Below, in pieces: positions 2 through 17,176 of a stretch of DNA of 20,000 nt. The stretch lies in IMG/VR virus record IMGVR_UViG_3300042549_008416; one strand, given 5' to 3'. Within the stretch, counting starts at the first letter, position 1, and each line of letters opens with the position of its first letter. The stretch is from an uncultured virus (IMG/VR IMGVR_UViG_3300042549_008416). Taxonomy: Duplodnaviria > Heunggongvirae > Uroviricota > Caudoviricetes. The notes below the pieces were generated by a model. It saw only the letters and a list, made by a program, of their open reading frames with translations. It was not told where the DNA came from and did no database searches. The position numbers were made by a program, and so were the translations under genes.

Positions 2-1489
2 GAATTTGAAACTTCTGCTGCTGCAAAAAGGTATGTGGAATCTTCAGATTGGAAAAGGCCGTATTCAATTAAAAAAATTGAACCAAAAGTTGCCAGAACT
101 CAATTCGAAGAGGAAGTTTTTGAATACGCTGATGGTGGAGATACAGATTCGCCAGAATCAATCTGGGAATCAACTAAGCCAATCAAAAGAGTAAAAATGC
201 TTGTTAATGCTGCTTTTGATGGTCAAAAATATAAGCATACACAAAATGAATTAATTGAATTTTCAGATTTAGAATGGTCAAGTTTACCAGAAGATATTAG
301 AAGTAAATTAGAATTAGATATATATAAATATGCTGATGGTGGACAATTTGATTTTAAACCTTATGGAAAAACAAAAGGTAGATATAAAATAGAATATGTA
401 GAGGAAGGTAAAAAACAATCTGAAGTTTGGGAATCAAAAGAGATGGTTGAAGATAGAGGTAAAAAATTATTAAAACTTGGATGCACTAATATTAAAATTA
501 CGAAAGTCAAAAAAATGGCTAGGGGTGGAGAACCAAAACCTTCACTAATACCTGATTATAAAAAAATTAGTGGTATCGAAGTTGAAGATATTGATATGGC
601 AGATTATCCAGATTTCTCGGATGCGTACATATCATATGCTGAATATGATGGAGAGCCTATGACAGATGAGCAATTAGAAGAGCTTAATCAAGACGGATAT
701 ATTGTTTATGAAGCTATACAAAGGAGATTATTTGCTGATGGTGGTAAAGTTCGTCAAAATAAAAAAGATAAATTATGGGAATCTATAAAAAATAAATTTT
801 CAGAAATATTCTATTTAAGAGAAACGAATCCAAATGAAATATTTTCAAATGACGTAATAGCCGAAAAAAATGAATATTTATATTTTGCTGCCGCTTGGGT
901 TACAACCACTTTAAGCTTTGAAGAAGCAGAAAATAAATTTATGAAGATGTTGACGGATGATGAGAAAAAAATGATTAAAATAGAACGCAACGTAAAAGAT
1001 ATAAATGAAGCATTCGGTTTAATGTCAGAAAAGAAAATTTTAGTAAAAAGAATTGATAAGATGGCTGATGGCGGGGAGGTTAGTTTATGGAAAGTAGATA
1101 AAAATAAAGTTGAAAAATTAAAAACTGGTAGTAAAAGAGCTATTAAAGGTTACATAACAAAAAACAAACTTGATAGAGCTACTGGAGAGAATTGGGGTTT
1201 GCAAGAGTGGCCAACTGATGTTACTGAAGAACAAATTTTAAGGTATAATCGTTCTAATATGACGGCAACATCTCAAGAATATGCAAGAGGCGGCAAGGTA
1301 AAAAGCAGATGGATTCAAGATGCATTAAGCGGAAACAAAGGGGAACTTCGTAAAACAGCCAAAAGAAAGGGCTTAATCAAAGGAGATGAGAAATTATCAA
1401 ATTCTGACTTACGAAAATTGCAGAAAATGGGCGGTAAAACTGCAAAAAGGGCTCGTTTAGCAGAAACTTTGATAGAATTTAAAAAATAA
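2..1489 (+). CDS. 5'-truncated large modular protein with six [YFM]A[DR]GG motifs (candidate polyprotein / virion core protein)
   Basis: The frame is open from nt 2 (EFETSAAAKRYVESS...), so the GTG at 35 is probably internal. Motifs: YADGG (125), YADGG (329), MARGG (515), FADGG (731), MADGG (1061), YARGG (1280). The last module is very basic (RWIQDAL...KRARLAETL). Confidence 0.85.
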   Translation, partial: EFETSAAAKRYVESSDWKRPYSIKKIEPKVARTQFEEEVFEYADGGDTDSPESIWESTKPIKRVKMLVNAAFDGQKYKHTQNELIEFSDLEWSSLPEDIRSKLELDIYKYADGGQFDFKPYGKTKGRYKIEYVEEGKKQSEVWESKEMVEDRGKKLLKLGCTNIKITKVKKMARGGEPKPSLIPDYKKISGIEVEDIDMADYPDFSDAYISYAEYDGEPMTDEQLEELNQDGYIVYEAIQRRLFADGGKVRQNKKDKLWESIKNKFSEIFYLRETNPNEIFSNDVIAEKNEYLYFAAAWVTTTLSFEEAENKFMKMLTDDEKKMIKIERNVKDINEAFGLMSEKKILVKRIDKMADGGEVSLWKVDKNKVEKLKTGSKRAIKGYITKNKLDRATGENWGLQEWPTDVTEEQILRYNRSNMTATSQEYARGGKVKSRWIQDALSGNKGELRKTAKRKGLIKGDEKLSNSDLRKLQKMGGKTAKRARLAETLIEFKK

Positions 1490-2061: not shown

Positions 2062-2438
2062 TGGAAGAAGCAACATCAGCAACAGCTCCTGCACCAGCAG
2101 CAGCACCAGCCCCAGCGGCAGCACCTGCACCAGAGGCAGCATCTGCACCAGCACCAGCACCAGCACAATCAAGTGGTGGCGGTTTCGGTTCTTCTATTAA
2201 AGAAGCTGTAAGTACTATGAATTGGACTGAAGTTATTTTCGGAGTATTAGGTTCAGCAGCTTTATTTTATACAATTTACTACTATAAATACAATCTCACA
2301 ATGAATAAAACATTCAAAGCTGAGATGCAGAATAAGATTGACGATTTAACTATCAAATTATCTGATATGGAGAGTGCATCTCAAAGAGATATATTGCCTG
2401 CAAACACACCGCAGCAAGGGTTTGATGGTTTCTATTAA
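2061..2438 (+). CDS. membrane protein with Ala/Pro-rich N-terminus, one TM helix and a coiled coil
   Basis: APAPAAAPAP repeats, then VIFGVLGSAALFYTIYYY, then heptad-like MQNKIDDLTIKLSDME. Confidence 0.8.
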   Translation: MEEATSATAPAPAAAPAPAAAPAPEAASAPAPAPAQSSGGGFGSSIKEAVSTMNWTEVIFGVLGSAALFYTIYYYKYNLTMNKTFKAEMQNKIDDLTIKLSDMESASQRDILPANTPQQGFDGFY

Positions 2439-2458: not shown

Positions 2459-3106
2459 ATGCAGGTAAATGAATTAAGATTTGGTAATTCAAATCGTACC
2501 ATCCTTGTTTATCTTAAAACAGAAAATTACTTAGATTCTCTCTTACCAGAACTAAGCTCATTCCCGCCACCTGAAAACGATAGCAAAGAAGTATATCAAG
2601 AATTAAATCAACTCATTGAGTATACAAACTTTCTTGAACAAGACGAGCAATTAAGACGTAGATATGAATTATACGATGGTGATTTTGAAAATTACATCAT
2701 TGAAAGATTAGTAAACGTAGGTATAGACAAGCAAGAATTAGAAAAAATTGTCAGAGAGATACACGATGACATACTTCCACTACTTGTTAAACTGAAGGTT
2801 ACATACAATAGGGCTAGACCTTATCAACTAGCATTTTATAAAGGATTAAAGTTATATCCTTTTAAATCTGCAACAGCAGATTCTTCATCATATCCATCAG
2901 GACACACATATCAAGCAAGGATTTACGCTGAAGTATTGGGTAATATGTACCCAAAATTTTATAAAGCCTTACACGATTTAGCTAATGACATTTCTTGGTC
3001 AAGATTATATTTAGGACTTCATTACCCTTCTGATATGGAGTATTCACTTTATGCAGCAGAAGTCGTACTAAAACATCCAGAATTTAGAAAAAAATACAAG
3101 TTATAG
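2459..3106 (+). CDS. PAP2 / acid phosphatase / vanadium haloperoxidase superfamily protein (soluble)
   Basis: All three signature motifs are present in order: KxxxxxxRP (KVTYNRARP), PSGH (SYPSGHT) and SRxxxxxHxxxD (SRLYLGLHYPSD). No TM segments. Confidence 0.9.
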   Translation: MQVNELRFGNSNRTILVYLKTENYLDSLLPELSSFPPPENDSKEVYQELNQLIEYTNFLEQDEQLRRRYELYDGDFENYIIERLVNVGIDKQELEKIVREIHDDILPLLVKLKVTYNRARPYQLAFYKGLKLYPFKSATADSSSYPSGHTYQARIYAEVLGNMYPKFYKALHDLANDISWSRLYLGLHYPSDMEYSLYAAEVVLKHPEFRKKYKL

Positions 3107-3115
3107 TGAAATACA

Positions 3116-3577
3116 ATGGGTGTACACATAAGTCAACTTCCTCAAGAGGTAAAAGATAGGTTAGGGTTAAAAGACCCACAGCATAAGCAATTTTGGGCAA
3201 TTATTGGTTCAAAAGACCCGATATATTTCCGTTCCTCTTGGGAGTATTACTATGCTATATTCCTCGAAAAATTAAAGCAAGAAGGTAAAATAGTCGACTG
3301 GAAGCACGAGCCAAAGTGTTTCTGGTTCGAGAATATTAAGCGTGGGGTTAGGTCATATCTACCTGATTTTTGTGTATTGCATTTAAACGGCACTGAGGAG
3401 TGGGCTGAAGTAAAAGGGTACTATGATTCAAAATCCCAAACAAAGATGAAGAGAATGGCAAAATACTATCCTCAAATCAAGATTAGGCTGGTAGGCTCGG
3501 ATTGGTTCAAAATAAACCTAAAAGCTTGTAAAGCATTAGAGCCTATGCTTGCAAAAGCTGTTCAAAAAGTTTCATAA
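3116..3577 (+). CDS. PD-(D/E)XK endonuclease (DUF1064 / T7 endonuclease I / TnsA-N-like), possible resolvase
   Basis: FRSSWE ... WKHEP ... YLPDF ... WAEVKG catalytic arrangement. Confidence 0.8.
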   Translation: MGVHISQLPQEVKDRLGLKDPQHKQFWAIIGSKDPIYFRSSWEYYYAIFLEKLKQEGKIVDWKHEPKCFWFENIKRGVRSYLPDFCVLHLNGTEEWAEVKGYYDSKSQTKMKRMAKYYPQIKIRLVGSDWFKINLKACKALEPMLAKAVQKVS

Positions 3578-3644: not shown

Positions 3645-4085
3645 ATGATAAAAACGGCATCCATTTCAACCAACATATTTGATGAACTCTTTGTAACTAT
3701 TGAGTCTATTGGTGTCGATACTACAATAAAAGTCCTTCAAGAAGCAAGAACAAAAGTGTTGATTTTAGGAGATAACAATGTTGATAATATCATTAATGCA
3801 GTAGTAGAAATAACTGGCGTTCAAAAATCAAGGATATTACACGGAACTGACAGAAGTGATGATAGGAAGATGGCCTTAGCTCTTTGTGTGTATTATATAA
3901 AGAATCAATTTGAATATTCTTATAATGATATGAATAAGATATTTTCAAAAGATAGGGCTGGATTATACAGATATTATTCTTTAATCGATAATATTGCAGC
4001 CAAACCAAAAAATGAATTTGACAAAACACTAAGTGAATATCGGAAACAATTAGAATTATTTATTACTAGAGAAAAAATTAAATAA
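3645..4085 (+). CDS. DNA-binding protein with a DnaA domain IV-like HTH
   Basis: IINAVVEITGV...IL...R...RKMALALCVYYIK..FEYSYNDMNKIFSKDRAGLY resembles the DnaA C-terminal pattern (I...V...FGV....L....R....AR..AMYL.R....SL..IG..F.RDHTTV). No AAA+ domain. Confidence 0.55.
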   Translation: MIKTASISTNIFDELFVTIESIGVDTTIKVLQEARTKVLILGDNNVDNIINAVVEITGVQKSRILHGTDRSDDRKMALALCVYYIKNQFEYSYNDMNKIFSKDRAGLYRYYSLIDNIAAKPKNEFDKTLSEYRKQLELFITREKIK

Positions 4086-4087
4086 CT

Positions 4088-4924
4088 ATGGCAGAAAAAT
4101 TTGAGACAGAAATCATTGAACCTGAAGAAAGGAAAGCAGTAGACTACAATCCTCTTGACGAACAAGTTAATGAGAAAGCGTATACTACTCCAAATACAAA
4201 TACGCAAGGTATTGACTTAAATGCTCCTATACCTGAGCCGAGATTTACTCCTCCGCCAATGGATAAGAGGACAATAAATCAAGAACAAGGAAAACAACCT
4301 AAGCCAGAACCAATGAATCCTGAGATGAAAAATCTTGGGAAAAAAGATACTGAAATGGCGGCAGGTCATATGGCAAAGCTAATCATACAAGGTTATGAGT
4401 GGATGCACCAGTTGGCTAACAAAGGTTTACAAGTCTCTGAAAAAAAATTAAATAAATTACAAGCTGAAGGAGAAATCAATCTTAATGCAATGATTGATTA
4501 CGACTATGGCAAAAAAATTCGTGCTGGAGATTTCTTTATTGAATATAATCAGCAAGTAAGTAATGTATTAACTGTAAGCCAAGAATTTAAAGATGAAGCG
4601 ACTCCGCTGCTTGAAAAAGTCTTAGCGAAGCGTGGTATCGGAATGACAGATGAGCAAATGCTTATGTTTGTATTTGGTAAAGATATTGCAGCTAAGTCTA
4701 TGATATTCTTCCAACAAAAAGCACAGATGAATCATATGTTGGCAAGCATTAAAGAATCAACGATGGCTCAATATGCACAAGCTGCACCGCCACCGCCACC
4801 TCCAATGCAATCTGAACCCCAACCGCAACCGCAACCTACTCAACCTGAAGCAGAATATATCGCAGTAGAACCAGAAGAAGAAGTCGCACCGAAAAAAAGA
4901 GCTGGTAGACCAAGAAAAATTTAA
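4088..4924 (+). CDS. hypothetical protein with Pro/Gln-rich termini and helical core, immediately upstream of the packaging ATPase
   Basis: 278 aa ORF with 2 nt spacing to both neighbours; PPPPPP/QPQPQP tract; basic C-terminal KKRAGRPRK. Confidence 0.85.
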   Translation: MAEKFETEIIEPEERKAVDYNPLDEQVNEKAYTTPNTNTQGIDLNAPIPEPRFTPPPMDKRTINQEQGKQPKPEPMNPEMKNLGKKDTEMAAGHMAKLIIQGYEWMHQLANKGLQVSEKKLNKLQAEGEINLNAMIDYDYGKKIRAGDFFIEYNQQVSNVLTVSQEFKDEATPLLEKVLAKRGIGMTDEQMLMFVFGKDIAAKSMIFFQQKAQMNHMLASIKESTMAQYAQAAPPPPPPMQSEPQPQPQPTQPEAEYIAVEPEEEVAPKKRAGRPRKI

Positions 4925-4926
4925 TT

Positions 4927-5727
4927 ATGGGAAGAGAACCTAAATTACTTGTAGCTGTTGGCAAAAAAGGTGTAGGTAAATCATATACTACAAAAGAAAT
5001 GATGAATCAATATGCTTATGTAAATCCTAAGCGTAGAGTTTTAATTTTAGATGTAAATGATGAATACTTTGACATTAAGGCATTAAGTATACAAGATATT
5101 GGATTGTTTTCAGTACATCCTCAAATCGAAGTAAGGAGAATCAGACCATTTTTAGATAATGGTAAGAGAATGACACTAGATGATATTGCATCAACGCTCT
5201 TTATTATTCTTGAAACATTTAGGAATGGATTACTACTCGTAGAGGATATTAATAAGTATATCAGTGATACTATGCCTAATGACTTGGTAGGTGCTATCTG
5301 TACGAATAGACACATAGGCGTAGACATCATAATGCACTATCAATCTATTGGTAGGATTACATCAAAGGTATGGCAGAACCTAAATATAATTAGGATGCAT
5401 AAGATTACCGATGCTGTAAAGAAGCATAAGCATAAGTTTGAGGATAAGTACGAATACATATCGATAGCAGAGATAATGATTAATCAAGAGTATGAGAAGG
5501 GCAACAAGCACTTCTTTGTATATGTAGACGTAGATGATGAAAAAGTTTATGGCTCGTTTACAACAGCTCAATACGATAACGCAGTAAATATCTTTATACA
5601 GAACAACTATGCAAATGTTATCACTCCTATGCTAAATGCTCGTGGAATGGATGGTAAAAAGGTGCATACAGCCCAATCTGCCATAACTGAATATAAAAGA
5701 AGGCTATTATCTTATATGAAAAAATAG
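4927..5727 (+). CDS. A32/P9-like (FtsK-HerA superfamily) genome packaging ATPase
   Basis: N-terminal Walker A GKKGVGKS, strand VLILD, Walker B LLLVED, and the Arg-finger/Gln-sensor motif NRHIGVDIIMHYQS typical of A32-type ATPases. 266 aa stand-alone, no nuclease domain. Confidence 0.85.
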   Translation: MGREPKLLVAVGKKGVGKSYTTKEMMNQYAYVNPKRRVLILDVNDEYFDIKALSIQDIGLFSVHPQIEVRRIRPFLDNGKRMTLDDIASTLFIILETFRNGLLLVEDINKYISDTMPNDLVGAICTNRHIGVDIIMHYQSIGRITSKVWQNLNIIRMHKITDAVKKHKHKFEDKYEYISIAEIMINQEYEKGNKHFFVYVDVDDEKVYGSFTTAQYDNAVNIFIQNNYANVITPMLNARGMDGKKVHTAQSAITEYKRRLLSYMKK

Positions 5728-5780
5728 TAAAAACAACAGACATTATATACGATTATTGATTAAACAACAATAATCAACGT

Positions 5781-5818
5781 AAAATCATTGACAATAAAAA
5801 GGTCAGTGATTTTTTTTT
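5781..5818 (+). terminator. intrinsic terminator after the ATPase operon
   Basis: AAAATCATTGAC(5781-5792) / 9 nt loop / GTCAGTGATTTT(5802-5813), 12 bp with one G-U pair, continuing into a T-run to 5818. Confidence 0.75.
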
Positions 5819-5834
5819 GTGTTATTTTCCAGCA

Positions 5835-5842
5835 TAAATTTG
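5835..5842 (+). promoter_or_regulatory. Bacteroidota-type -7 element (TAAATTTG), candidate promoter of the capsid gene
   Basis: Exact TAnnTTTG just downstream of the terminator; a TTTG lies at 5816-5819 (15 nt spacer, shorter than typical). Confidence 0.5.
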
Positions 5843-6090
5843 ATACATAATTGTTCTTTGATTGCTATTTCTGGAAGGGTCGATATAAAATCTTGAATTT
5901 GTATTCATTTTTGAATAGAGATTTGGAAGGACTATTAATCTAAGATAGAAGGTAAAACTGGGTAATATAAGTAGAGACTAAGTATTATTTCTTTTGTAAG
6001 ACATAAAATTGAAAATCTATGAGTAGTATCAAGTTGAACTCTGAAATCTTAAAGGAAAGGACAGACTCGTTAAAGGAAAGTTTTTTATGG

Positions 6091-6112
6091 TTTTTAGTAT
6101 TGATACTAAAAA
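6091..6112. promoter_or_regulatory. perfect 10 bp inverted repeat (TTTTTAGTAT-TG-ATACTAAAAA), possible operator
   Basis: Dyad with a 2 nt centre, 76 nt upstream of the ATG at 6189. Confidence 0.35.
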
Positions 6113-6188
6113 AATAAATAATGCCCCCTGAAACACACAAAAAAAAGTAATCATAAAATAAATTTTTAACAAACAAATATTAACTAAA

Positions 6189-6926
6189 ATGTCAGTAAGA
6201 AACTACATCGACAACGCACGCAGAGGTAACTACTCTAATTGGACTGGTGATGCTGCTCCTCAAAATGGTGGCTACCGTAACTTTACAAGTGCCGTTCAAA
6301 CGAACGACCCTCAATCTCCTGTAAGAGCACAAACAAGACCTTTTGCAAACGCAGCTGGTACTGGTAACAATGCTCCTCAATCTCAACCTTACATCTTAAC
6401 TGTAAGCAACGCTTCTGCTGCTGCCGTAAGTAACTTTGATGTATTAGGTGCTTTCACTTATATCGGAAACAGTGGTTTCGCAAATGGTAGCTTGACTATC
6501 TCTGGCGTTACTATCTCTTCTGCTATCAGTAACGTAAACTACCAACAGTTCTTGTATCAATCGATGCAACAGCCATTCTCTGTAGGTCTAACTTACATCG
6601 AGAGTACTTCTGGTACGTCTGCACAAATTACACAAACCTTCACATTAAATACTCAAGATGCGAATGGTAACCAATTATTGAGAACAATCGTTCCAACTAT
6701 TGACCCTTACCAACAACAATCTACAATTGTAGCTGTTAAGCAACAGTATTCTATTGATGGTTTCACTAAGTTAACTTTCAGCACTATTGGTGCGTCAGTT
6801 GTGTTCCGCATTCACTTCTACCCTAGCACAAACATTAACTTGTCTGCTGGTTTACAAGGTCAAAGCGTAGCTCAAGCTTATGGTAATCCTAATATCGTAG
6901 GTGTACCTACTTATATTCAAGGGTAA
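6189..6926 (+). CDS. candidate major capsid protein (jelly-roll type; ~180 aa beta-rich body plus ~60 aa N-terminal extension)
   Basis: Alternating hydrophobic beta-strand pattern and few charged residues. Visibly enriched in C-ending codons (AAC, TAC, ATC, TTC) compared with neighbours. Own leader and terminator; next to the A32-like ATPase. The fold is inferred. Confidence 0.6.
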   Translation: MSVRNYIDNARRGNYSNWTGDAAPQNGGYRNFTSAVQTNDPQSPVRAQTRPFANAAGTGNNAPQSQPYILTVSNASAAAVSNFDVLGAFTYIGNSGFANGSLTISGVTISSAISNVNYQQFLYQSMQQPFSVGLTYIESTSGTSAQITQTFTLNTQDANGNQLLRTIVPTIDPYQQQSTIVAVKQQYSIDGFTKLTFSTIGASVVFRIHFYPSTNINLSAGLQGQSVAQAYGNPNIVGVPTYIQG

Positions 6927-6945
6927 TCCACAAACTCTATAACCG

Positions 6946-6990
6946 AAAAAGGGGGCTATGATTGTCAATCTTTCATAAGCCCCTTTTTTT
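6946..6990 (+). terminator. intrinsic (possibly bidirectional) terminator after the candidate capsid gene
   Basis: AAAAAGGGGGCT-ATGA...TCAT-AAGCCCC-TTTTTTT: GC-rich stem flanked by an A-run and a T-run. Confidence 0.85.
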
Positions 6991-7003
6991 CTAATCATCA
7001 GCA

Positions 7004-7477
7004 ATGACGAATTTTCCGTATGTACAAGAAGTCCTACCTGATGCTCAACCATCAGCGATGAATGTATATGATTATATAGCAAATGTGAATCCTGATGCTG
7101 CAAATAGTGTTTGTAAAAAGTATGGCTACTATCAAATAGAAAATTTAGAAGAGCTTGCTTGGTGTCTTAGACAAATTGTAGCAGATAATGGAGAGGAATC
7201 ATTAAAAAAAGTTATGGAATTGCATCCTGATAAGGAAGTGATTCTTGAATTATTTGAGGTCAAACCTGAACCCAAAAAGGAAGAAATATCTTCAACCCCA
7301 ATTATGATGAATGCTGATGGTAATAAAGACTGCGGCTGCGGATGTGGATATAGATGCGGACTTAATATGAGAAATGCAGACGGAAGTGCATCAACTGGAA
7401 TAGCAAGTCAAACAAATATGATTATCTTAGTAGCTGCTATGATAGTTTCTATTTCTATAATTTCAATGAAAAAATAA
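7004..7477 (+). CDS. C-terminally anchored membrane protein with two NADG motifs flanking a Cys cluster
   Basis: MMNADG-NKDCGCGCGYRCGLN-MRNADG; TM MIILVAAMIVSISIISMKK. Confidence 0.85.
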   Translation: MTNFPYVQEVLPDAQPSAMNVYDYIANVNPDAANSVCKKYGYYQIENLEELAWCLRQIVADNGEESLKKVMELHPDKEVILELFEVKPEPKKEEISSTPIMMNADGNKDCGCGCGYRCGLNMRNADGSASTGIASQTNMIILVAAMIVSISIISMKK

Positions 7478-7480
7478 GTT

Positions 7481-8017
7481 ATGAAACAAAATTTTGCAGG
7501 TCAACCTGATGGTGGTGGTGCTTTAGGATATGCTGGCCCTTTTCCAACTTTAACTGGTAAGGATTTGATGTCAGATGTAAACCCTAATCAATCTACTATT
7601 TTTAGACCTTACCCACGTTTTGTAGATAACTGTAAAACAAAAAAATGTATGAAAAATTCTATGAAGAATTTCGATGATTATAATAATTATGGTAATGAAG
7701 ATTCTGAGACCAATGAAAGAGGCGGCGGATTCTTTTCTTTAGGAAATTTGAATCTAGGTGATTTATTTAGAACTGGTACTACTATTTATAGCGAAACATC
7801 GAGAAATCAAGCTATGAGAGACCAAGCGGCATTAGCACTTCAGATTGAGCAACAAAAAGCAGCTCAGGCTAAAGCTCTTGCACAACAAAAAGCAGCAGAA
7901 TCAGGTTCATATGCAGGTAAAATCAAAGCTTATACAACTCCAATTATTGTTGTTGGTGTATTAACAATTGGTGGTATTGCAGCGTATTTCTACTTTAAAA
8001 AGAAAAAAATTAGCTAA
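7481..8017 (+). CDS. C-terminally anchored membrane protein with Gln/Ala coiled segment
   Basis: QAALALQIEQQKAAQAKALAQQKAA followed by IIVVGVLTIGGIAAYFYFKKKK. The true start could be a downstream Met. Confidence 0.8.
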   Translation: MKQNFAGQPDGGGALGYAGPFPTLTGKDLMSDVNPNQSTIFRPYPRFVDNCKTKKCMKNSMKNFDDYNNYGNEDSETNERGGGFFSLGNLNLGDLFRTGTTIYSETSRNQAMRDQAALALQIEQQKAAQAKALAQQKAAESGSYAGKIKAYTTPIIVVGVLTIGGIAAYFYFKKKKIS

Positions 8018-8019
8018 TT

Positions 8020-8589
8020 ATGGCTGAATTAAGTACTGAAGCAAAAGTTGGCATTGGATTAAGCTTGCTCGCTGCTCTAGGAGTAGGGGGCTTCTTGATT
8101 TATAAATCAATGAATGCTAAAGAAGATGCACCTTTAACTGCGGCACAAATTGCTGCTTTATCAAAGTTAAATCCTCCAGCACAAGCAGCTGCATTAAGAC
8201 AACAAAATCCTAATATTAGTGATGAAAAACTTTTAAAAGCTCTTAAAGAACTAGCGAAAGGACTTAAAGGTGGTGGCGGCTCATCTGGTGGTGGAGCACC
8301 ATCTGGTGGTGGCTCAGGCTCTAAACCTAAACCTAAACCTAAACCTAGTGGCTCTGGCTCTAAACCTAAAGACGGATATGACGATGGATATGATGATGAA
8401 AAGGATGGATATGACGAGGGATATGATAGCAAGGATGGCAGTGGATATGACAGCGGATACGGCGGTGGATATGGCGGTGGATATGGCGGTGGATACAGCG
8501 GTGGATACAGCGGTGGATACGGAGATTATAGTGCAAGCTATTCAGGAGGATATGATAGTGGTGGATATGGTGGCGGGTTTAGTTATTAA
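8020..8589 (+). CDS. N-anchored membrane protein with Gly/Tyr/Asp low-complexity tail
   Basis: TM VGIGLSLLAALGVGGFLIY, then a G/S linker, KPKPKPKP, GYDD-type repeats and GYGG/GYSG repeats. Confidence 0.85.
   Translation: MAELSTEAKVGIGLSLLAALGVGGFLIYKSMNAKEDAPLTAAQIAALSKLNPPAQAAALRQQNPNISDEKLLKALKELAKGLKGGGGSSGGGAPSGGGSGSKPKPKPKPSGSGSKPKDGYDDGYDDEKDGYDEGYDSKDGSGYDSGYGGGYGGGYGGGYSGGYSGGYGDYSASYSGGYDSGGYGGGFSY
8452..8523 (+). repeat. 12 bp tandem repeat ((g/a)gcggtggata(t/c)) encoding GGGY/SGGY
   Basis: About five adjacent copies: ggcggtggatat x2, ggcggtggatac, agcggtggatac x2. Confidence 0.85.
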
Positions 8590-8599
8590 ATTAAATTAG

Positions 8600-8815
8600 A
8601 TGTACGCAAAAAGTTATTTAAAGGCAGTAGGAGACACAAAAAAAAAGGATACGAATACTGTTATTTCTGAAACGACTAAAGGAACAATGGTAGGTGCTGC
8701 AATCGGTGCTGGAATTGGTATCTTTATTGGTTTTGGAAGAAAAAAGAATTTACTTATGAGTGGCTTCGTAGGAGCAGTAATAGGTGGAGCAATATCAAGA
8801 ATTTTTATAAAATAA
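8600..8815 (+). CDS. small glycine-zipper two-helix membrane protein
   Basis: GAAIGAGIGIFIG-RKK-GFVGAVIGGAI (GxxxG arrays). Confidence 0.8.
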   Translation: MYAKSYLKAVGDTKKKDTNTVISETTKGTMVGAAIGAGIGIFIGFGRKKNLLMSGFVGAVIGGAISRIFIK

Positions 8816-8838
8816 ATTACTAACAAAAATCAATTTTT

Positions 8839-8976
8839 ATGTTTAAAAGTGCAGACGCAACAGAAAAAAAACCTTTTTTAGAAACAGCGACTGGAATTGC
8901 TGTATCAGTAGGCGTATTATTCGTTACTGTATGGGTAGTTTCAAAAGCTTGGAAATCAGGACAAAAAACAGCTTAA
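8839..8976 (+). CDS. 45 aa single-TM protein, paralogue A (not in ORF track)
   Basis: MFKSADATEKKPFLETATGIAVSVGVLFVTVWVVSKAWKSGQKTA*; preceded by AAAAATCAAT. Confidence 0.85.
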   Translation: MFKSADATEKKPFLETATGIAVSVGVLFVTVWVVSKAWKSGQKTA

Positions 8977-9004
8977 TTATTATTAACTATAAAAATCAAT
9001 TAAA

Positions 9005-9127
9005 ATGGAGACGAAAAAATTATTAGGAAGTGCTGTAGGTGTTGCAGTTTCTTTAGGATTATTATTCGGTATGGTATGGGTTGCCTCTAAAGCTTGGCAA
9101 AAAGGTCAAGAAAAAAAAGGTTTATAA
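9005..9127 (+). CDS. 40 aa single-TM protein, paralogue B (not in ORF track)
   Basis: METKKLLGSAVGVAVSLGLLFGMVWVASKAWQKGQEKKGL*; clearly similar to 8839-8976; same AAAAATCAAT upstream. Confidence 0.85.
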   Translation: METKKLLGSAVGVAVSLGLLFGMVWVASKAWQKGQEKKGL

Positions 9128-9128
9128 T

Positions 9129-9287
9129 ATGAAAGTAGGTTCTGCTTTAACGACTATTGGAGCAATAGGTGGATTAGCATATGGTGTATCTAAACGAAAA
9201 TCGTTTTGGACAACCGCAGGCTTTACTATTCTATTTGCCATAGCTGGTGCAGCAGTAGGAACTGCTATAAATACAATTTCAGAATAA
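9129..9287 (+). CDS. 52 aa glycine-rich two-helix membrane protein
   Basis: Start revised from 9081 (which overlaps paralogue B) to the ATG at 9129: MKVGSALTTIGAIGGLAYGVSKRKSFWTTAGFTILFAIAGAAVG...; same helix-basic loop-helix layout as 8600-8815. Confidence 0.8.
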   Translation: MKVGSALTTIGAIGGLAYGVSKRKSFWTTAGFTILFAIAGAAVGTAINTISE

Positions 9288-9301
9288 ATTAAAAAAAAAA
9301 A

Positions 9302-9559
9302 ATGAACAAACAAACAAAAACCCTTTTAGGAGTAGCGGTATTAGCTGGTGTAGGCTATTATCTTTTTACACAAAACAAGAAAAAGTCATTCGCAAACTTT
9401 TCAGACAAAGTTAAAATGACTCCAAAATGCAAAGGAGATTATGGTAAAGATGCAGAAGGTCGTTATATCTGCTGTAAGCAAGGATGGCGTAGTAATGCAT
9501 CTGATGGACAACCTTGTGGTGGCGGTGAAGGTGGTGGCCAAAAAGAATTAGCATTTTAA
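9302..9559 (+). CDS. N-anchored membrane protein with small 4-Cys domain
   Basis: MNKQTKTLLGVAVLAGVGYYLF anchor; C...CC...C. Confidence 0.8.
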   Translation: MNKQTKTLLGVAVLAGVGYYLFTQNKKKSFANFSDKVKMTPKCKGDYGKDAEGRYICCKQGWRSNASDGQPCGGGEGGGQKELAF

Positions 9560-9576
9560 TTTAAAAAATAAATAAG

Positions 9577-9918
9577 ATGGATAAGCAAACAAAAATGTAT
9601 GTTGGCTTAGGTGTTGCTGCGGTGGCAGGATACTTACTTTACGACAACTGGAAGAAGAATCAACCAGTAGCTCCAGCTAAATCTTTCTCTGGAAATGTAA
9701 CTACCGATGTAGTTGGCCGTAGAAAAATTGCTATGGTAGGGTTAGATGCTACTCAAAGACAAAACGCAGTAATTAAAGATTCTCCATTTGCTTGGGGTAA
9801 TTTTTCTGCTCAAAATGAAAAGATTAAAGACGGAACTTGGGCAAGTGCAGTAGGCGACAATATCGCTCCAAACTTTTTCAATGTTCACGACTCAGAAAAT
9901 TCATTTAGAAACCGCTAA
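9577..9918 (+). CDS. N-anchored membrane protein
   Basis: MDKQTKMYVGLGVAAVAGYLLY anchor, similar to 9302. Confidence 0.8.
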   Translation: MDKQTKMYVGLGVAAVAGYLLYDNWKKNQPVAPAKSFSGNVTTDVVGRRKIAMVGLDATQRQNAVIKDSPFAWGNFSAQNEKIKDGTWASAVGDNIAPNFFNVHDSENSFRNR

Positions 9919-9943
9919 TATTAGCTGAAAATAAGTATTTTTG

Positions 9944-9970
9944 ATAGGCATTTGGTTTCCAAGTGCCTAT
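9944..9970 (+). other. intergenic stem-loop without U-tract
   Basis: ATAGGCATTTGG-TTT-CCAAGTGCCTAT, 12 bp with one G-U pair; extendable by AGTATT(9934)/AATACT(9971). Confidence 0.55.
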
Positions 9971-9982
9971 AATACTATATAT

Positions 9983-10300
9983 ATGGAAATGTCAGCCAAT
10001 AAAAAATGGAAAATGAGTGGCAGCACGCTGTCATTTAAAGAGTGGATTGATAGGGAAAATAAGAAAAAAGAGCCCGAAGGTAATTTTATCCCTTTTATTC
10101 CAGATACAAGTGCAAGTAAAACTATCGAAGAGACGCTAAAACTATCTCGTGATAATATTGCAAAAACTGCTGGATATAAAGAAGGAGTAGATACTAATAC
10201 TATTTTTGGTTTAGATAAAAAGATATTTGTCTTCTCATCTATTATGATAGTTGGTTCTCTTAGTTATTATTTTTATAGCAGGTTAAAGAAAAAGAAATGA
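9983..10300 (+). CDS. C-terminally anchored membrane protein
   Basis: Start revised to ATG 9983 or 9989, because the TTG at 9941 falls at the hairpin. TM IFVFSSIMIVGSLSYYFY followed by RLKKKK. Confidence 0.8.
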   Translation: MEMSANKKWKMSGSTLSFKEWIDRENKKKEPEGNFIPFIPDTSASKTIEETLKLSRDNIAKTAGYKEGVDTNTIFGLDKKIFVFSSIMIVGSLSYYFYSRLKKKK

Positions 10301-10557
10301 TAATGGATAAACAAAAAATGGTTTATGTAGGAGTTGCGTTATTTGCATTTCTTGTAATTGTAAATTCTACAAAAAAAGTTGTATTAGAAGAAGTAGTTTC
10401 TGAAAATACAAATAAAACATTTGATAATACTTCATTACCTTATCAACTCAGACCTCCATATAAAATGGCTGAAGGTGAAAAAATGCCAAAGACTATTGCT
10501 AAAAGAACAAATGAATTTTCATCCTTTTTAGGAATTAAGCCTAGATTTGACACATAA
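10297..10557 (+). CDS. N-anchored membrane protein
   Basis: ATGA overlap with the previous gene; MDKQKMVYVGVALFAFLVIV anchor. Confidence 0.75.
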   Translation: MIMDKQKMVYVGVALFAFLVIVNSTKKVVLEEVVSENTNKTFDNTSLPYQLRPPYKMAEGEKMPKTIAKRTNEFSSFLGIKPRFDT

Positions 10558-10560
10558 GTT

Positions 10561-11343
10561 ATGATATATAAAGTACCTACAAGACACGAAGAATTAACCT
10601 TATTAATCAAGGTACATACATTTAAGCCTGAAACTATAAGATTGAAGGTAACTGATGCTGACCAACCAAATACTGCTTTCACTGACAGATACAAAACTGT
10701 TGATGGTGAAAGTATTTTTTTTGTAAGGATGCCAGTAAGTCCAAATAATGCTTTGATTTCGGTATATAATGAAGCAAATGGTAATTTGCAAGTGGGTGCT
10801 GACAATACTATAATCGTTGATTCTATTACAAAAGAACCTCTTGATAAAAAATTAGATGTAATTGATTTTGCAAATCCTCTTGTAAGAAGCTTTGTAAATT
10901 TTTCTACAAGATTTTGTTATAATGCTGGTTCTTTACCGAGTGGTACATACCTATCAGATGATAAAAAATTTGTAATAAAGTACTTACCAATCATTGAAGA
11001 TAACGGACAAGAACAAACTACTCCTGCTCGTATTGATATTGATAATGGTACAATAGAAATTTCAAAAAAACAATTTTTAGATTTTACTGTACCAAGTAGA
11101 AAAGCTATTTTATTACACGAATTTTCTCACGTTTATCTTAATGAAAACGTAGATGATGAAGTGGAAGCCGACTTAAATGGATTATTGATTTATTTAGGAT
11201 TAGGATACCCAAGAATTGAAGCATTTGAAGTATTTGCTAAAACATTCTTGAGTGTACCTTCTGACGGAAATAGAATGCGTTACGATAAGATTAAAACTTT
11301 CATAGACGAATTTGAACAACATAACACTTATTTGTATGAATAA
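10561..11343 (+). CDS. zincin metalloprotease (HEXXH...ExEAD; M48/M78 ImmA-IrrE-like), candidate virion maturation protease
   Basis: ILLHEFSHVYLNENVDDEVEADLNG; N-terminal beta-rich domain; the only gene without a TM segment in the membrane-protein cluster. Confidence 0.8.
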   Translation: MIYKVPTRHEELTLLIKVHTFKPETIRLKVTDADQPNTAFTDRYKTVDGESIFFVRMPVSPNNALISVYNEANGNLQVGADNTIIVDSITKEPLDKKLDVIDFANPLVRSFVNFSTRFCYNAGSLPSGTYLSDDKKFVIKYLPIIEDNGQEQTTPARIDIDNGTIEISKKQFLDFTVPSRKAILLHEFSHVYLNENVDDEVEADLNGLLIYLGLGYPRIEAFEVFAKTFLSVPSDGNRMRYDKIKTFIDEFEQHNTYLYE

Positions 11344-11539
11344 AGATTTAAAAGAGGGAATAATTGTTTCTTTAGTAGCGGTGGCTGCTTTTTTAATATA
11401 TAAGCAAGCAACAAAAACAAAAGATATTTCAAAAACATCAGTTGCAACAAACGACCCTGACCCTATTAATATAGGTTTACCAGTAGAAGACCCTAAAAAA
11501 GTCGGAGAAGTATTAATGGATGCACCTGCAAATATTTAA
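11336..11539 (+). CDS. small N-anchored membrane protein
   Basis: Start revised to ATG 11336: MNKDLKEGIIVSLVAVAAFLIYK. Confidence 0.75.
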   Translation: MNKDLKEGIIVSLVAVAAFLIYKQATKTKDISKTSVATNDPDPINIGLPVEDPKKVGEVLMDAPANI

Positions 11540-11541
11540 TT

Positions 11542-11883
11542 ATGGATGCTAAAACAAAAAAAGGACTGATTGTTACGGGTGTAGTTGTAGGACTAGTAGC
11601 ATTAGCATATTTTCTATTGAAGAAAGTTGTTCCATCTCCAACTAATTGCACAAAAGATAGCAATAGTAAGACTTTAGAAGAATTAAAGTTTTGTGTTTGG
11701 AATCATATGATACTTAATTATCCAACTGCTGCAACAAAAGAAAACGAAAATTTCATTAAAAGTAATTATCCTTTTACTGATATAGCTTTTATGAAAGTAT
11801 GGGATGCAGCTATTCAAAAAAATGAGCCTACTTTCACTTATGCAGGTAAGAAGATGGATACTAGTAATGGTCAATTTATATAA
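11542..11883 (+). CDS. N-anchored membrane protein
   Basis: MDAKTKKGLIVTGVVVGLVALAYFLLKK anchor. Confidence 0.8.
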   Translation: MDAKTKKGLIVTGVVVGLVALAYFLLKKVVPSPTNCTKDSNSKTLEELKFCVWNHMILNYPTAATKENENFIKSNYPFTDIAFMKVWDAAIQKNEPTFTYAGKKMDTSNGQFI

Positions 11884-11892
11884 ATAAATTTT

Positions 11893-12456
11893 ATGGCAGA
11901 CAACAAAATATTCAAAGTTTACCAAGAATTGCCACAATGGGCTAAAGGAGTTGTAGTTGTTGGTGGATTAGTAGTTACTTACATAGTAGGTAGCACTGTT
12001 TATAAAAAAGTTAAATCTTTTCAGGATAGTGCTGATGCTCAAAATAAGCTGAATCAATTAGAAGATGATTTAAAAATAAAGATAAGACAAGGTCAACAAC
12101 CTTCGTTCAGCAGTACCCAATATAACAACTTCGCAGACTCAATACAAACTCTATTTGAAGGATGTGATTATTCTAGTCCAGCGATTCCAGTTCCTACAAC
12201 TTGGCTTTTAAATGTTGGATGGAGTAACTCTGGAGCAAGTCTTTTTAATATTTTATATCAATTTAATAATGATGTTGACTTTTTAGCTCTACAAAAAGCT
12301 TTCGGTACAAGAACTATTTCAAAAGGATGGTATTGTGGTGGAGATTATACCAATACAACATTAAATCAAGCTGTAAATAAACAACTAAATAGTCAGGAAA
12401 TTGGAGCTATCAATAAATTGCTAACTCAAAAAGGTATAACATATAGATTTAGTTAG
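11893..12456 (+). CDS. membrane-anchored helical protein, divergent annexin-repeat-like (paralogue of 12459)
   Basis: TM GVVVVGGLVVTYIVG. ADSIQTLFEG...FNNDVDFLALQKAFGTRTIS...LNSQEIGAINKLL aligns with the next gene. Confidence 0.7.
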   Translation: MADNKIFKVYQELPQWAKGVVVVGGLVVTYIVGSTVYKKVKSFQDSADAQNKLNQLEDDLKIKIRQGQQPSFSSTQYNNFADSIQTLFEGCDYSSPAIPVPTTWLLNVGWSNSGASLFNILYQFNNDVDFLALQKAFGTRTISKGWYCGGDYTNTTLNQAVNKQLNSQEIGAINKLLTQKGITYRFS

Positions 12457-12458
12457 TT

Positions 12459-12872
12459 ATGGAAAATAAAAATAAAAAAATATTATATTGGTCTGCTGGA
12501 ATAATAGTTGCGTTTGTTTTATTCGTAAAACTAAAATCAAGAGGGACAAAACAAATTGTACCTAATGTTGAAGGAGGTGTAACGCAAGGATTAAATTTCA
12601 AAGCTATGGCTGATAGTATTTATGAAGCTATGGATGGTTATGGAACTTCATTTCAGCTAATTGTAAATGAATTTTCAAAGCTTAACAATAACAATGATTT
12701 TGACGCATTATATAAGGCTTACGGAATAAGAACTGTAAGTAGTGGAGCTGGAAATCTATTTGTTTCAGATTATACTGGAGATATGACAGGAGCTCTAAAA
12801 AAAGATTTATCTGCAACTGAAATTGCAAAAATAAATAGCCTGCTATCAATAAAAAATATTAAAACTATATAA
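12459..12872 (+). CDS. membrane-anchored annexin-repeat-like protein
   Basis: TM ILYWSAGIIVAFVLFV. ADSIYEAMDGYGTSFQLIVNEFSKLNNNNDFDALYKAYG...LKKDLS resembles the annexin repeat consensus A..L..AMKG.GTDE..I..IL...Y...L...L..ELS. Confidence 0.65.
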   Translation: MENKNKKILYWSAGIIVAFVLFVKLKSRGTKQIVPNVEGGVTQGLNFKAMADSIYEAMDGYGTSFQLIVNEFSKLNNNNDFDALYKAYGIRTVSSGAGNLFVSDYTGDMTGALKKDLSATEIAKINSLLSIKNIKTI

Positions 12873-13382
12873 ATGAGCTTAAAGAAAACACTTATTGGTG
12901 TAGGAATACTAGGAGGCTTAGGCACATTTGTCTACGCCTTTTATGCTTATGCCAATAGGCAAGCAAAATTATTGGAAGATTTTACTTGGAAACTAATGGG
13001 TGTCAATTTTGACTCTTATTCTTTACAAGCTGTAAAAGGTAAAGTTGAAATTCTTTTTACAAGTAAATCAGATGTAGAGGTTCAAATCCAAAAATTTGTG
13101 ATGACTTTTTATTTTAATGGTGCTGAAGTCGGATATATAGAAGATACAACTCCTTTTATCATACCTGCAAGGGGTACAGCTCCAATCAATTTTAGCTTTA
13201 CCTTGAATCCTCAGCTCGTATTCGGAAATGTAACAAATATAATCAATTATGCCCTACAGAAAGAAGACGCTTCTGTCTCTTTAAGGGGTTTTGCAAGTAT
13301 AAAAAGTGGCTTTGTAAGTGCTACATTGCCAATTACCTACGATTCTACAATTAAGTGCATTTTATACGATAAAAATTGTTAG
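12873..13382 (+). CDS. N-anchored LEA_2/WHy-like beta-sandwich protein
   Basis: TM, then a beta-strand pattern ...SDVEVQIQKFVMTFYFNGAEVG...FIIPARGTAPINFSFTL typical of LEA_2-like domains. Confidence 0.65.
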   Translation: MSLKKTLIGVGILGGLGTFVYAFYAYANRQAKLLEDFTWKLMGVNFDSYSLQAVKGKVEILFTSKSDVEVQIQKFVMTFYFNGAEVGYIEDTTPFIIPARGTAPINFSFTLNPQLVFGNVTNIINYALQKEDASVSLRGFASIKSGFVSATLPITYDSTIKCILYDKNC

Positions 13383-13399
13383 AATAATGGGATAATATT

Positions 13400-13407
13400 T
13401 AACTTAG
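13400..13407 (+). promoter_or_regulatory. possible variant -7 element (TAACTTAG)
   Basis: One mismatch to TAnnTTTG, in the 40 nt gap before the ATG at 13423. Confidence 0.3.
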
Positions 13408-13422
13408 CGTAAAAGTGAAATT

Positions 13423-13851
13423 ATGATAGATTTTATCCAAAGTGAAACTAAGAAATTAATGTACAAGTGCTGTGAAAGGCACTCAAAAAAGTATCAAAAA
13501 GCAATGGAAGATGTGCAGTTGATACTGGGTCTTGACGAAAACGGAAACACATATACTGTGTGTGAGAATTACAAACCAAAAGAACACTTAGATATTCTCG
13601 GTGTTCTCGGTGTAAGAATCGACTTTTTAGGATATAGTCATCTTGCTCCGCCCTTTATTTTAAAGAGTTTGGTAAGATTTTCAGAAAAACATAGTATAGA
13701 CATTGATAAAGTCAAAGTAATGTGTATTCCAACATTAAACGAAAAAGGAAAACCTGACGTTCTTCTTTTTGTGTATAACGATAGCGAATATGTAGAGACA
13801 ATCTCATTCGCTGAGTTATTCCGAGAGGAGGATTTCGAAATACCGACATAA
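13423..13851 (+). CDS. hypothetical soluble protein
   Basis: 142 aa ORF with normal start context; no motif recognised. Confidence 0.8.
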   Translation: MIDFIQSETKKLMYKCCERHSKKYQKAMEDVQLILGLDENGNTYTVCENYKPKEHLDILGVLGVRIDFLGYSHLAPPFILKSLVRFSEKHSIDIDKVKVMCIPTLNEKGKPDVLLFVYNDSEYVETISFAELFREEDFEIPT

Positions 13852-13852
13852 A

Positions 13853-14116
13853 ATGCAAATATATACTACAACATTATCAAGCGGTTCTCTTGTCCTAAGC
13901 AGGGCAGATGGAGGACAAGTAATTTCAATCCAGTGTAAAACTGGAGGAGAAGCTCTCTTTACTGGTAGTTTGCCATTTAAGGGAGAACAACCTACGCCAA
14001 TCACATTGACGGCAGGTCAAGTTTTTAATTATTCGGCATCTAGTTCTTCGTCTCCTTTAGATGGGATTACGATTACTTGGGTAGCAGGAGACATCGATAT
14101 TGTTGTAGGATTCTAA
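13853..14116 (+). CDS. small all-beta protein, candidate vertex/penton or fibre-base protein
   Basis: 87 aa, about 8 short beta-strand-like segments, S/T/G-rich, directly upstream of the fibre genes. Confidence 0.6.
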   Translation: MQIYTTTLSSGSLVLSRADGGQVISIQCKTGGEALFTGSLPFKGEQPTPITLTAGQVFNYSASSSSSPLDGITITWVAGDIDIVVGF

Positions 14117-17149: not shown

Positions 17150-17176
17150 TAATTACTAATAATTAAATATTTATAA

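Follow-up and report, generated by a model that had tools for sequence, protein, structure and literature searches.

Tailless, membrane-containing phages in culture have genomes of ~10-44 kb. The taxa with double-jelly-roll coat proteins are placed in the Bamfordvirae and include the Tectiviridae, Corticoviridae, and Turriviridae. The Tectiviridae and Corticoviridae have genomes of 10-15 kb, and the tectiviruses carry a protein-primed polymerase. The genome of STIV, a member of the Turriviridae, is ~17 kb. The single-jelly-roll group, the Helvetiavirae, is composed of the Sphaerolipoviridae, the Simuloviridae, and the Thermus phages P23-77 and IN93. Another tailless phage has a host in the phylum Bacteroidetes and a genome of ~44 kb. 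Capsids of the Sphaerolipoviridae/Simuloviridae/P23-77 type are described in the literature as two single-jelly-roll proteins around an internal membrane, with genomes given as 16-19 kb and ~30 kb. The latter phage is described as membrane-containing and of PRD1-type architecture, with two capsid protein types encoded (PMC6356626). The subject of this work is a 20,000-nucleotide stretch of DNA from an uncultured virus (IMG/VR record IMGVR_UViG_3300042549_008416), referred to below in its entirety as the window. It encodes a candidate packaging ATPase, a jelly-roll protein, a run of small membrane proteins, and a candidate protease within a 9.2-kb block (positions 4927-14116).

On balance, we favor the reading that the window is the morphogenesis module of a tailless, membrane-lined bacterial virus from lake water, and that this virus represents a lineage that is widespread and undescribed, its genomes being in the range of ~70-130 kb. 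A literature search, whose reach did not extend to subscription journals, found no description of such a lineage. A preliminary description of the same DNA had listed a packaging ATPase, a beta-rich protein, small membrane proteins, a protease, and fibers, and this list of observed features was confirmed overall. The features and their coordinates are collected in Table 1.

The candidate packaging ATPase is a member of the FtsK/HerA superfamily. Its sequence matches Pfam DUF87/HerA (6.4e-6, above the cut-off of that family) and phrog_2666 (6.9e-10). In an alignment of 14 sequences that are 46-88% identical to the window protein, the Walker A (GKKGVGKS) and Walker B (LLLVEDI) motifs fall in invariant columns, with G12, G15, G17, K18, E106, and D107 identical in all 14. 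The AlphaFold model has a mean predicted local distance difference test (pLDDT) score of 88. When this model was searched with Foldseek, the top 12 rows shown were all B204 of STIV2 or STIV (E 8.1e-10 to 5.3e-8; target template modeling (TM) score 0.62-0.69), followed by F1 ATPase (2.3e-6) and HerA (1.9e-5). VIA, an aligner independent of Foldseek, also put B204 ahead, aligning 186 of 204 residues with a Z score of 17.8 and a root-mean-square deviation of 2.7. The other VIA Z scores were 15.8 for DndH-C, 15.6 for VirB4, 15.5 for HerA, 12.7 for TrwB, and 11.4 for FtsK; the lead of B204 over HerA and VirB4 is modest, at ~2 Z units. B204 is the sole structural match of equally small, single-domain size. 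Approximately 55 extra helical residues at the C-terminus of the window protein (212-266) lie outside of the B204-aligned range, and no sequence match to B204 was detectable. The modeled fold supports a small ATPase of the viral packaging type, a B204-like candidate that would act in genome packaging. The preliminary description had termed this protein an A32/P9-type ATPase; the small viral packaging type stands, with B204 as its best structural match. The ATPase family comprises 989 representative clusters and was found in all five of the large viral contigs and all three of the genome bins tested.

The jelly-roll protein is encoded 3' of the ATPase and has no Pfam or PHROG family. Its AlphaFold model, built with an alignment of 30 homologues, consists of a disordered arm, residues 1-63, in which residues 3-15 form a conserved helix, and a core (residues ~64-214) that forms one beta sandwich with pLDDT >90. 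The predicted structure confirms that this product is a jelly roll, as the preliminary description had supposed; the fold is single, not double, and its structural matches are generic. Only jelly rolls appear among the weak Foldseek rows (TNF, C1q, phage tail-needle knobs, the PRD1 P5 spike, picornavirus VPs, and CBM22). Among the VIA rows with Z scores of 4.6-5.6 are capsid or vertex chains of PBCV-1, PR772, FLiP, phiCjT23, and PM2, as well as STIV A223. Such matches do not prove a capsid protein, and it is the genomic context that points to a capsid role. In all five genomes compared, the ATPase gene is followed by the jelly-roll gene at a distance of 0.3-3 kb. The family equals that of the ATPase in spread, with 513 representative clusters at E 1e-3 or better and 276 at 1e-10 or better.

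The jelly-roll gene is a stand-alone unit flanked by a leader and a terminator-like hairpin. The leader contains TAAATTTG at 5835. The hairpin has a z score of -4.3, and none of 200 shuffles was equally stable. The G+C content at third codon positions (GC3) of the gene is 0.31, compared to 0.13-0.25 for most of its neighbors. The "highly expressed look" that had been ascribed to this gene finds some support in the 461-bp leader, the hairpin, and the GC3 value. Two metatranscriptome runs on lake samples, each from a different study, have their longest and deepest window contigs on the jelly-roll gene (538 nt and 582 nt, both at depth 7.1), compared to contigs of 150-270 nt at depth 2.2-2.7 on the other single-copy parts of the window, collagen-repeat pieces aside. 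An RNA-library contig also covers positions 5871-6022 within the leader. The lack of RNA-contig cover in parts of the window was considered as a sign of silence, and this use was rejected.

Relatives of the window were reached through the jelly-roll protein; a pattern search of viral contigs with the ATPase gave no loci. The jelly-roll protein was located at 44 viral-contig loci, on contigs of up to 102 kb, and in at least 496 metagenome stretches. The best identities were 55-57% in viral contigs, 91% in metagenome contigs, and 75% in genome bins. According to CheckV, 10 of 15 viral contigs are at least 90% complete. The relatives analyzed are G001 (101 kb), G002 (102 kb), G004 (74 kb), G005 (79 kb), and G016:C9 (132 kb, from a genome bin), and the last four are each colinear with G001. 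These sizes bear out the earlier suggestion of a virus larger than the known tailless phages. The order of the genes for the PAP2 phosphatase, the 278-aa protein, the ATPase, the jelly-roll protein, a membrane protein, the HExxH protein, and the 142-aa protein is the same in 4/4 relatives. No match to the 9.2-kb block (megablast) or to the ATPase and jelly-roll proteins (tblastn) was found in 50,697 phage records.

The hallmark families of tailed phages are undetectable in four of these relatives, which span 74-132 kb. Within the window, Pfam and PHROGs scans covered 27 of the 31 open reading frames (ORFs), with the four smallest left out, and returned no terminase, portal, capsid, or tail-tube family, as the preliminary description had stated for terminase, portal, and tail genes. 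The same holds for HK97 capsid, portal, and terminase families in the relatives, where G002 was left out of the family-library scans. For G001, the Pfam and PHROGs scans took in each of the 138 ORFs, and NCBIfam was added for 46 unassigned ones; no terminase (bar the weak phrog_2666 match of the small ATPase), portal, capsid, tube, tape-measure, or polymerase family was found. No Caudoviricetes hallmark family was detected in G005 (33 of 34 ORFs of at least 200 aa) or G004 (37 of 37) with PHROGs, 36 of these 70 ORFs also being scanned with Pfam, or in G016:C9 (61 of 63 ORFs of at least 180 aa). An 823-aa protein of G004 (L058:11986-14457, - strand) matches a "terminase large subunit" PHROG. 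This candidate was rejected because the match is to an intein that interrupts the P-loop of a MoxR-type AAA ATPase. The Pfam matches of this protein are limited to AAA_5 and a homing-endonuclease domain. Compared to its 449-aa orthologue in G001, ~340 residues are inserted right after the Walker A lysine, and the insertion ends in His-Asn, followed by Thr. The intein also accounts for the spurious "primase" and "helicase loader" PHROG matches of the same protein. In G016:C9, the protein with a "baseplate hub" match is 213 aa long and has a peptidase-family match as well.

The coding content of G001 includes many N6/N4 methylases, RecT, a replication initiator, a DnaQ-like exonuclease, YopX, DUF932, glycosyltransferases, the MoxR-type AAA ATPase, a polyvalent giant protein, and endolysins of three kinds (GH108, glucosaminidase, and M15). 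The endolysins, RecT, and the initiator, together with fibers, give the relatives a viral character. At 80516-81832 of G001 (L054:516-1832), a sulfotransferase adjoins an adenylylsulfate (APS) kinase, and several glycosyltransferases are encoded elsewhere in the genome. A virus with this sulfotransferase and APS kinase may modify a surface glycan or its own fibers.

The relatives also extend the jelly-roll family. The window itself has one jelly-roll gene, and shorter paralogues (~150-180 aa, without the arm) are seen elsewhere in the genomes of 4/4 relatives (E 4e-13 to 4e-9 with the family profile) and not adjacent to each other. A 406-aa ORF of G002 (17198-18415) contains two complete jelly-roll domains (2e-47 and 4.5e-42). 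The distant members P0009 (397 aa) and P0135 (411 aa) are likewise composed of two tandem domains, each with an invariant DPYQQQ loop. These proteins are natural single-to-double jelly-roll fusions. The paralogues fit a shell of a major and a minor jelly-roll protein, with a two-domain fusion in some lineages.

The clues to a membrane are indirect, namely the small hydrophobic proteins and a conserved PAP2 phosphatase. With a clear membrane helix defined as a 17-residue Kyte-Doolittle maximum of at least 1.65, such a helix is present in 15 of the 17 ORFs from 7004 to 13382, and another ORF is borderline at 1.35; the ORF without a membrane helix encodes the HExxH protein. The earlier count of 16 small membrane proteins is fair, with two more encoded upstream at 1699-2438. 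A Gly-zipper_YMGG domain (Pfam, 2.9e-8) is present in the product of 8600-8815, and the last of the membrane-anchored proteins (12873-13382) carries a LEA_2 beta-sandwich domain (Pfam, 5.1e-6). The adjacent membrane-anchored proteins encoded at 11893-12456 and 12459-12872 are paralogues that both match one ORF of G004, and the second has a weak match to DUF1970 (E 0.001). A PAP2-family phosphatase gene is unusual for a virus. Its homologues are syntenic, a few genes 5' of the packaging ATPase in 4/4 relatives, and the window protein has no predicted membrane helix (Kyte-Doolittle maximum 0.58).

The HExxH protein is a candidate zinc metalloprotease. H186-E187-x-S189-H190 and a downstream acidic cluster are invariant in 5/5 homologues. 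The protein is 47-59% identical in 4/4 relatives and was found in 10/10 further contigs. Pfam gives weak hints only, and low-scoring neighbors in the protein Atlas carry the DUF4344 and M48 metallopeptidase families. The protease named in the preliminary description is upheld as a candidate. Two short motifs recur in proteins of this lineage. The motif (Y/F/M)-A-(D/R)-G-G occurs six times in the truncated first ORF (2-1489). A broader form, x-A-(D/R/N/K/E)-G-G, occurs 11-28 times per genome in four relatives, compared to a shuffle mean of <1 and a maximum of 4. It is almost exclusive to giant proteins, where it is spaced at 60-110 residues (e.g., G001 29892-37619). Its recurrence in these giant proteins suggests a polyprotein or multiple processing sites. 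The second motif, (F/Y/M)-x-N-(A/V/I/M)-x-G, occurs as FANAAG at residue 52 in the disordered arm of the jelly-roll protein and as MMNADG and MRNADG (residues 101 and 122) in the product of 7004-7477. It recurs in small membrane proteins of G001, G002, G004, and G005, and its enrichment is modest (6-9 per genome compared to shuffle means of 2-4). The recurring motifs, together with the invariant HExxH protein, suggest proteolytic maturation in which virion proteins would be cut at short shared sites.

A particle, presumably icosahedral, can be proposed from these parts. The 245-aa single-jelly-roll protein, made abundantly from its own transcription unit, would form the shell. The small membrane proteins and the LEA_2-domain protein, perhaps with the soluble PAP2 phosphatase, would contribute a lipid layer beneath it. 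The 266-aa B204-like ATPase would drive double-stranded DNA into a particle assembled beforehand, and the two proteins of the DNA-binding type whose genes immediately precede it may serve as guides. Trimming of virion proteins at the short shared motifs may fall to the HExxH protein, and the collagen-like fibers would bind the host. A more far-reaching version of this proposal is tentative, and we regard it as rather doubtful: an undescribed lineage of order level or higher, with genomes of 70-130 kb, a large membrane-lined single-jelly-roll shell, a B204-type motor, a living single-to-double jelly-roll step, and possibly an adenovirus-like maturation by a zinc protease.

Several observations weigh against a tailless, membrane-lined virus with a jelly-roll shell. 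By sequence, the ATPase matches only HerA/DUF87 among solved PDB chains, and weakly (E 0.0023 and 0.018); Pox_A32, the Pfam family implied by its earlier A32 label, gave no match at E up to 0.1. The jelly-roll model has no Foldseek PDB match at E 1e-3 or better. Its best VIA Z score, 6.3, is to the bacterial carbohydrate-binding domain of AlgX, and all of its Z scores are <8, a range rated by the tool as common. In the viral library, it is mainly collagen/C1q-type head domains that come out on top (TM ~0.25), and G002 has five members of the jelly-roll family, some outside of the structural block. The RNA evidence consists of assembled contigs only, and because contigs cannot rank genes and DNA may occur in RNA libraries, the RNA cover of the jelly-roll gene is a hint only. 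The absence of HK97, portal, and terminase families rests on profile libraries, several large ORFs (416-2575 aa) have no family, and no contig has proven ends, beyond which such genes could sit. Neighbors of the HExxH protein in the protein Atlas are automatically labeled Uroviricota; the jelly-roll protein has no usable match there.

The matches to TNF, C1q, tail-needle knobs, and the P5 spike, together with the collagen/C1q heads in the viral library and the use of family members outside of the core module, keep alive a reading in which the virus is tailless and the 245-aa protein is a trimeric C1q/TNF-like spike head or a lectin, the shell protein being another gene. We consider this unlikely. 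The protein has no collagen or coiled-coil stalk, and its disordered arm and conserved N-terminal helix are as in many capsid proteins. Its gene stays near the packaging ATPase, stands alone with its leader and terminator, and is the best covered in two RNA libraries, with the caveats given above, and the module has no other conserved candidate of capsid size. The labels in the Atlas, the unassigned large ORFs, and the unproven contig ends would also suit a highly divergent tailed phage whose HK97 capsid, portal, and terminase are too diverged or off the contig, with the ATPase and jelly roll as accessory proteins. The genome size, RecT, the initiator, methylases, endolysins, collagen fibers, and polyvalent giant proteins are all common in such phages. 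As a rule, no phage gene is easier to detect than that of TerL. The scans of four relatives of 74-132 kb gave no TerL, the sole strong "terminase" match is an intein, and no tape-measure, tube, sheath, or baseplate family is present, the "baseplate hub" match fitting a peptidase family as well. The best structural match of the ATPase is the packaging enzyme of a tailless virus. A tailed phage is, in our estimate, somewhat less likely again than the spike-head reading.

We regard it as highly improbable that the DNA belongs to a mobile element that is not a virus, e.g., a plasmid or conjugative element, in which the ATPase and membrane proteins form a secretion or transfer apparatus. Zeta-toxin/ART-PolyVal polyvalent proteins, DUF932, YopX, and many methylases are also found on conjugative elements, the glycine-zipper protein has weak TrbC and TraT hints, and the ATPase model aligns with VirB4 and HerA at Z 15.5-15.6. 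However, Pfam found no relaxase, coupling protein, VirB4-size ATPase, or Bacteroidota Tra family in the 138 ORFs of G001, and endolysins of three kinds are present along with fiber proteins. The ATPase, at 266 residues, is of B204 size and has B204 as its best match. Further, the 132-kb bin contig is colinear with viral contigs along most of its length and has no patch of differing base composition.

Table 1. Features of the 20,000-nucleotide window, listed 5' to 3' (aa, amino acids; e-values as reported by the named library)
Feature	Position	Strand	Remarks
C-terminal 495 aa of giant protein	2..1489	+	5' end open
Two small proteins, one predicted membrane helix each	1699-2061, 2061-2438	+	Kyte-Doolittle 17-residue maxima 2.01, 1.65
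PAP2-family phosphatase	2459..3106	+	Pfam PAP2 5.6e-11
DUF1064 / Holliday-junction-resolvase-like nuclease	3116..3577	+	Pfam DUF1064 5.6e-7, phrog_190 2.3e-17
Small protein, weak DnaA C-terminal helix-turn-helix match	3645..4085	+	Pfam Bac_DnaA_C 6e-4, below curated cut-off
Conserved 278-aa protein	4088..4924	+	directly upstream of ATPase
Genome-packaging ATPase candidate, FtsK/HerA superfamily, B204-like	4927..5727	+	266-aa P-loop ATPase
461-bp non-coding leader of jelly-roll gene	5728..6188	+	no coding-strand ORF
Single-jelly-roll protein with disordered N-terminal arm, major capsid protein candidate	6189..6926	+	245 aa
Intrinsic-terminator-like hairpin and T run, just 3' of jelly-roll gene	6945..6990	+	-24.2 kcal/mol
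Eleven small ORFs	7004..10557	+	ten clear membrane helix, one borderline (hydrophobicity scan)
Conserved 260-aa protein, zinc-metalloprotease candidate	10561..11343	+	invariant HExxH
Five small membrane-anchored proteins	11336..13382	+	hydrophobicity scan
Conserved 142-aa protein and 87-aa beta-rich protein	13423..14116	+	no Pfam or PHROGs family
Two collagen-repeat fiber proteins, 1006 aa and >941 aa (3' open)	14129-17149, 17177-19999	+	

All of the long ORFs in the window are on the + strand. The first and the last extend past the window edges, and both edge genes are truncated, as had been noted. The G+C content is 0.30-0.38 as far as 14 kb and 0.42-0.52 in both collagen-repeat genes. PHROGs families could be assigned to just 6 of the 27 scanned proteins. 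The window contains no tRNA genes or Rfam families, and a scan for sigma-70 promoters gave no excess over shuffles.

The product of the first ORF is 37-40% identical to a 2575-aa protein of G001 and a 1179-aa protein of G002, and is possibly an internal protein or polyprotein. Two proteins encoded upstream of the ATPase are of the DNA-binding type. The first, with the weak DnaA match, has a counterpart at the equivalent position in G001 that matches a DnaA model at 1.4e-5; it is possibly a DNA-recognition factor for packaging. The second, the 278-aa protein, has no family in Pfam or PHROGs, and its homologues lie immediately 5' of the ATPase in 4/4 relatives. It has a Pro/Gln-rich tail with a basic GRP-type end, which we take to be AT-hook-like. 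The 142-aa protein near the end of the block has homologues in 4/4 relatives.

The fibers proposed in the preliminary description proved to be two collagen-repeat proteins (Pfam Collagen at 2.6e-101 and 6e-125), of which the first carries a beta-rich domain at its C-terminus. Matches to "tail fibre" PHROGs fall within the collagen repeats. The fiber genes (14129-19999) gather very many partial or joined metagenome contigs, with depths of up to 1453, compared to 32 elsewhere in the window. These repeats are common to many other genomes, or hypervariable, and break assemblies.

The genome ends and replication genes of the relatives bear on how the virus would replicate. No direct terminal repeats were found in 15 viral contigs. 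Inverted repeats of 123, 127, and 653 bp were flagged in three of the 15 and are unrelated to each other; those of 123 and 127 bp are the size of typical assembly artefacts. Inverted terminal repeats were considered as evidence for a PRD1-like linear genome and rejected as unsafe. G001 and G016:C9 end at roughly homologous places; G001 and G002 do not. The polymerase type, which the preliminary description had left to the full contig, was checked in G001, where no polymerase family was found, including a protein-primed family B polymerase (138 ORFs, Pfam and PHROGs), and where RecT, an initiator, and a DnaQ-like exonuclease are present. With RecT, an initiator, an exonuclease, and no polymerase in the relatives, replication would be unlike that of PRD1. 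It looks host-dependent and phage- or plasmid-like, not protein-primed.

The expression signals point to a host group. Rare Shine-Dalgarno motifs combined with TAnnTTTG are typical of Bacteroidota. A Shine-Dalgarno-like motif is present at 1 of 30 starts in the window and at 18 of 526 starts in five genomes. Of 158 intergenic regions in the five genomes, 49 have TAnnTTTG upstream of the gene on its own strand, most often at 18-50 nt from the start codon, compared to 21 that have it on the opposite strand. Across the whole window, TAnnTTTG is not enriched (21 found compared to 24.6 expected). Peptidoglycan hydrolases are encoded in the relatives, and the host is therefore a bacterium. Seven matches fall in genome bins, labeled Ignavibacteria, Chlamydiae (2), Sediminibacterium, Flavobacteriales, Alphaproteobacteria, and Legionellales, and both contigs of >100 kb are in the bins labeled Sediminibacterium and Flavobacteriales (Bacteroidota). 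These labels are weak evidence of a host and reflect binning, not integration, because the 132-kb contig has a viral character over most of its extent. The host is probably a member of the Bacteroidota, as had been proposed from the start; the expression signals fit, and the mixed bin labels add little.

Sixteen metagenome runs from lake water contain the window DNA at full word share; the source sample may be among them, and they may stem from a single campaign. Tailless membrane-containing phages are described in the literature as under-sampled and possibly abundant in water. If the favored reading is correct, the size range of tailless membrane-containing phages would be roughly doubled or tripled, and automatic pipelines would be seen to file such phages among the tailed phages. 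The family would also provide a natural series of single-domain and fused two-domain jelly rolls for studying the origin of double-jelly-roll capsids. The recurrence of this DNA in many samples of lake water makes the lineage accessible to direct tests.

The preliminary description had compared this layout to tectiviruses, corticoviruses, and sphaerolipoviruses and placed it in a varidnavirus lineage. The ATPase, the jelly roll, and the membrane proteins agree with that comparison; the single rather than double fold of the coat candidate does not agree with the tectiviruses and corticoviruses. The window shares with the Tectiviridae and Corticoviridae (PRD1, Bam35, and PM2) a packaging ATPase, jelly-roll proteins, and a run of small membrane proteins, then spikes. 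Unlike in these families, the coat candidate is a single jelly roll, and the double-jelly-roll definition of tectiviruses and corticoviruses therefore does not apply to it; G001 also lacks a DNA polymerase family. Similar to the B204 of STIV and STIV2 (Turriviridae) and to the A32 and P9 ATPases, the window ATPase is a small, single-domain FtsK/HerA P-loop enzyme, with B204 ranked best by both aligners, and its gene lies near the coat-candidate gene as in the viruses that encode them. It differs in having no sequence match to B204 or Pox_A32 and in its ~55 extra C-terminal residues. The genome of the window lineage is several times larger than that of STIV, and its host would be bacterial.

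The maturation of adenovirus offers a further parallel. In adenovirus, adenain cuts at (M/I/L)xGG-x sites. The lineage of the window resembles adenovirus in the recurring Gly-Gly motifs of its giant proteins and in a protease-like gene in the same module. Unlike adenain, which is a cysteine protease, the candidate enzyme is an HExxH zinc protein.

The Sphaerolipoviridae, the Simuloviridae, P23-77, and IN93 share with the window lineage a single-jelly-roll protein of the coat type, a packaging ATPase, many membrane proteins, and, as seen in the relatives, more than one jelly-roll member per genome. The window lineage differs in its size of 70-130 kb and in its non-adjacent jelly-roll paralogues. 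The build of the tailless phage with PRD1-type architecture (PMC6356626) is like that proposed for the window lineage. Its host phylum, Bacteroidetes, agrees with the probable host here; that phage is from a hypersaline habitat, and the window lineage is from lake water.

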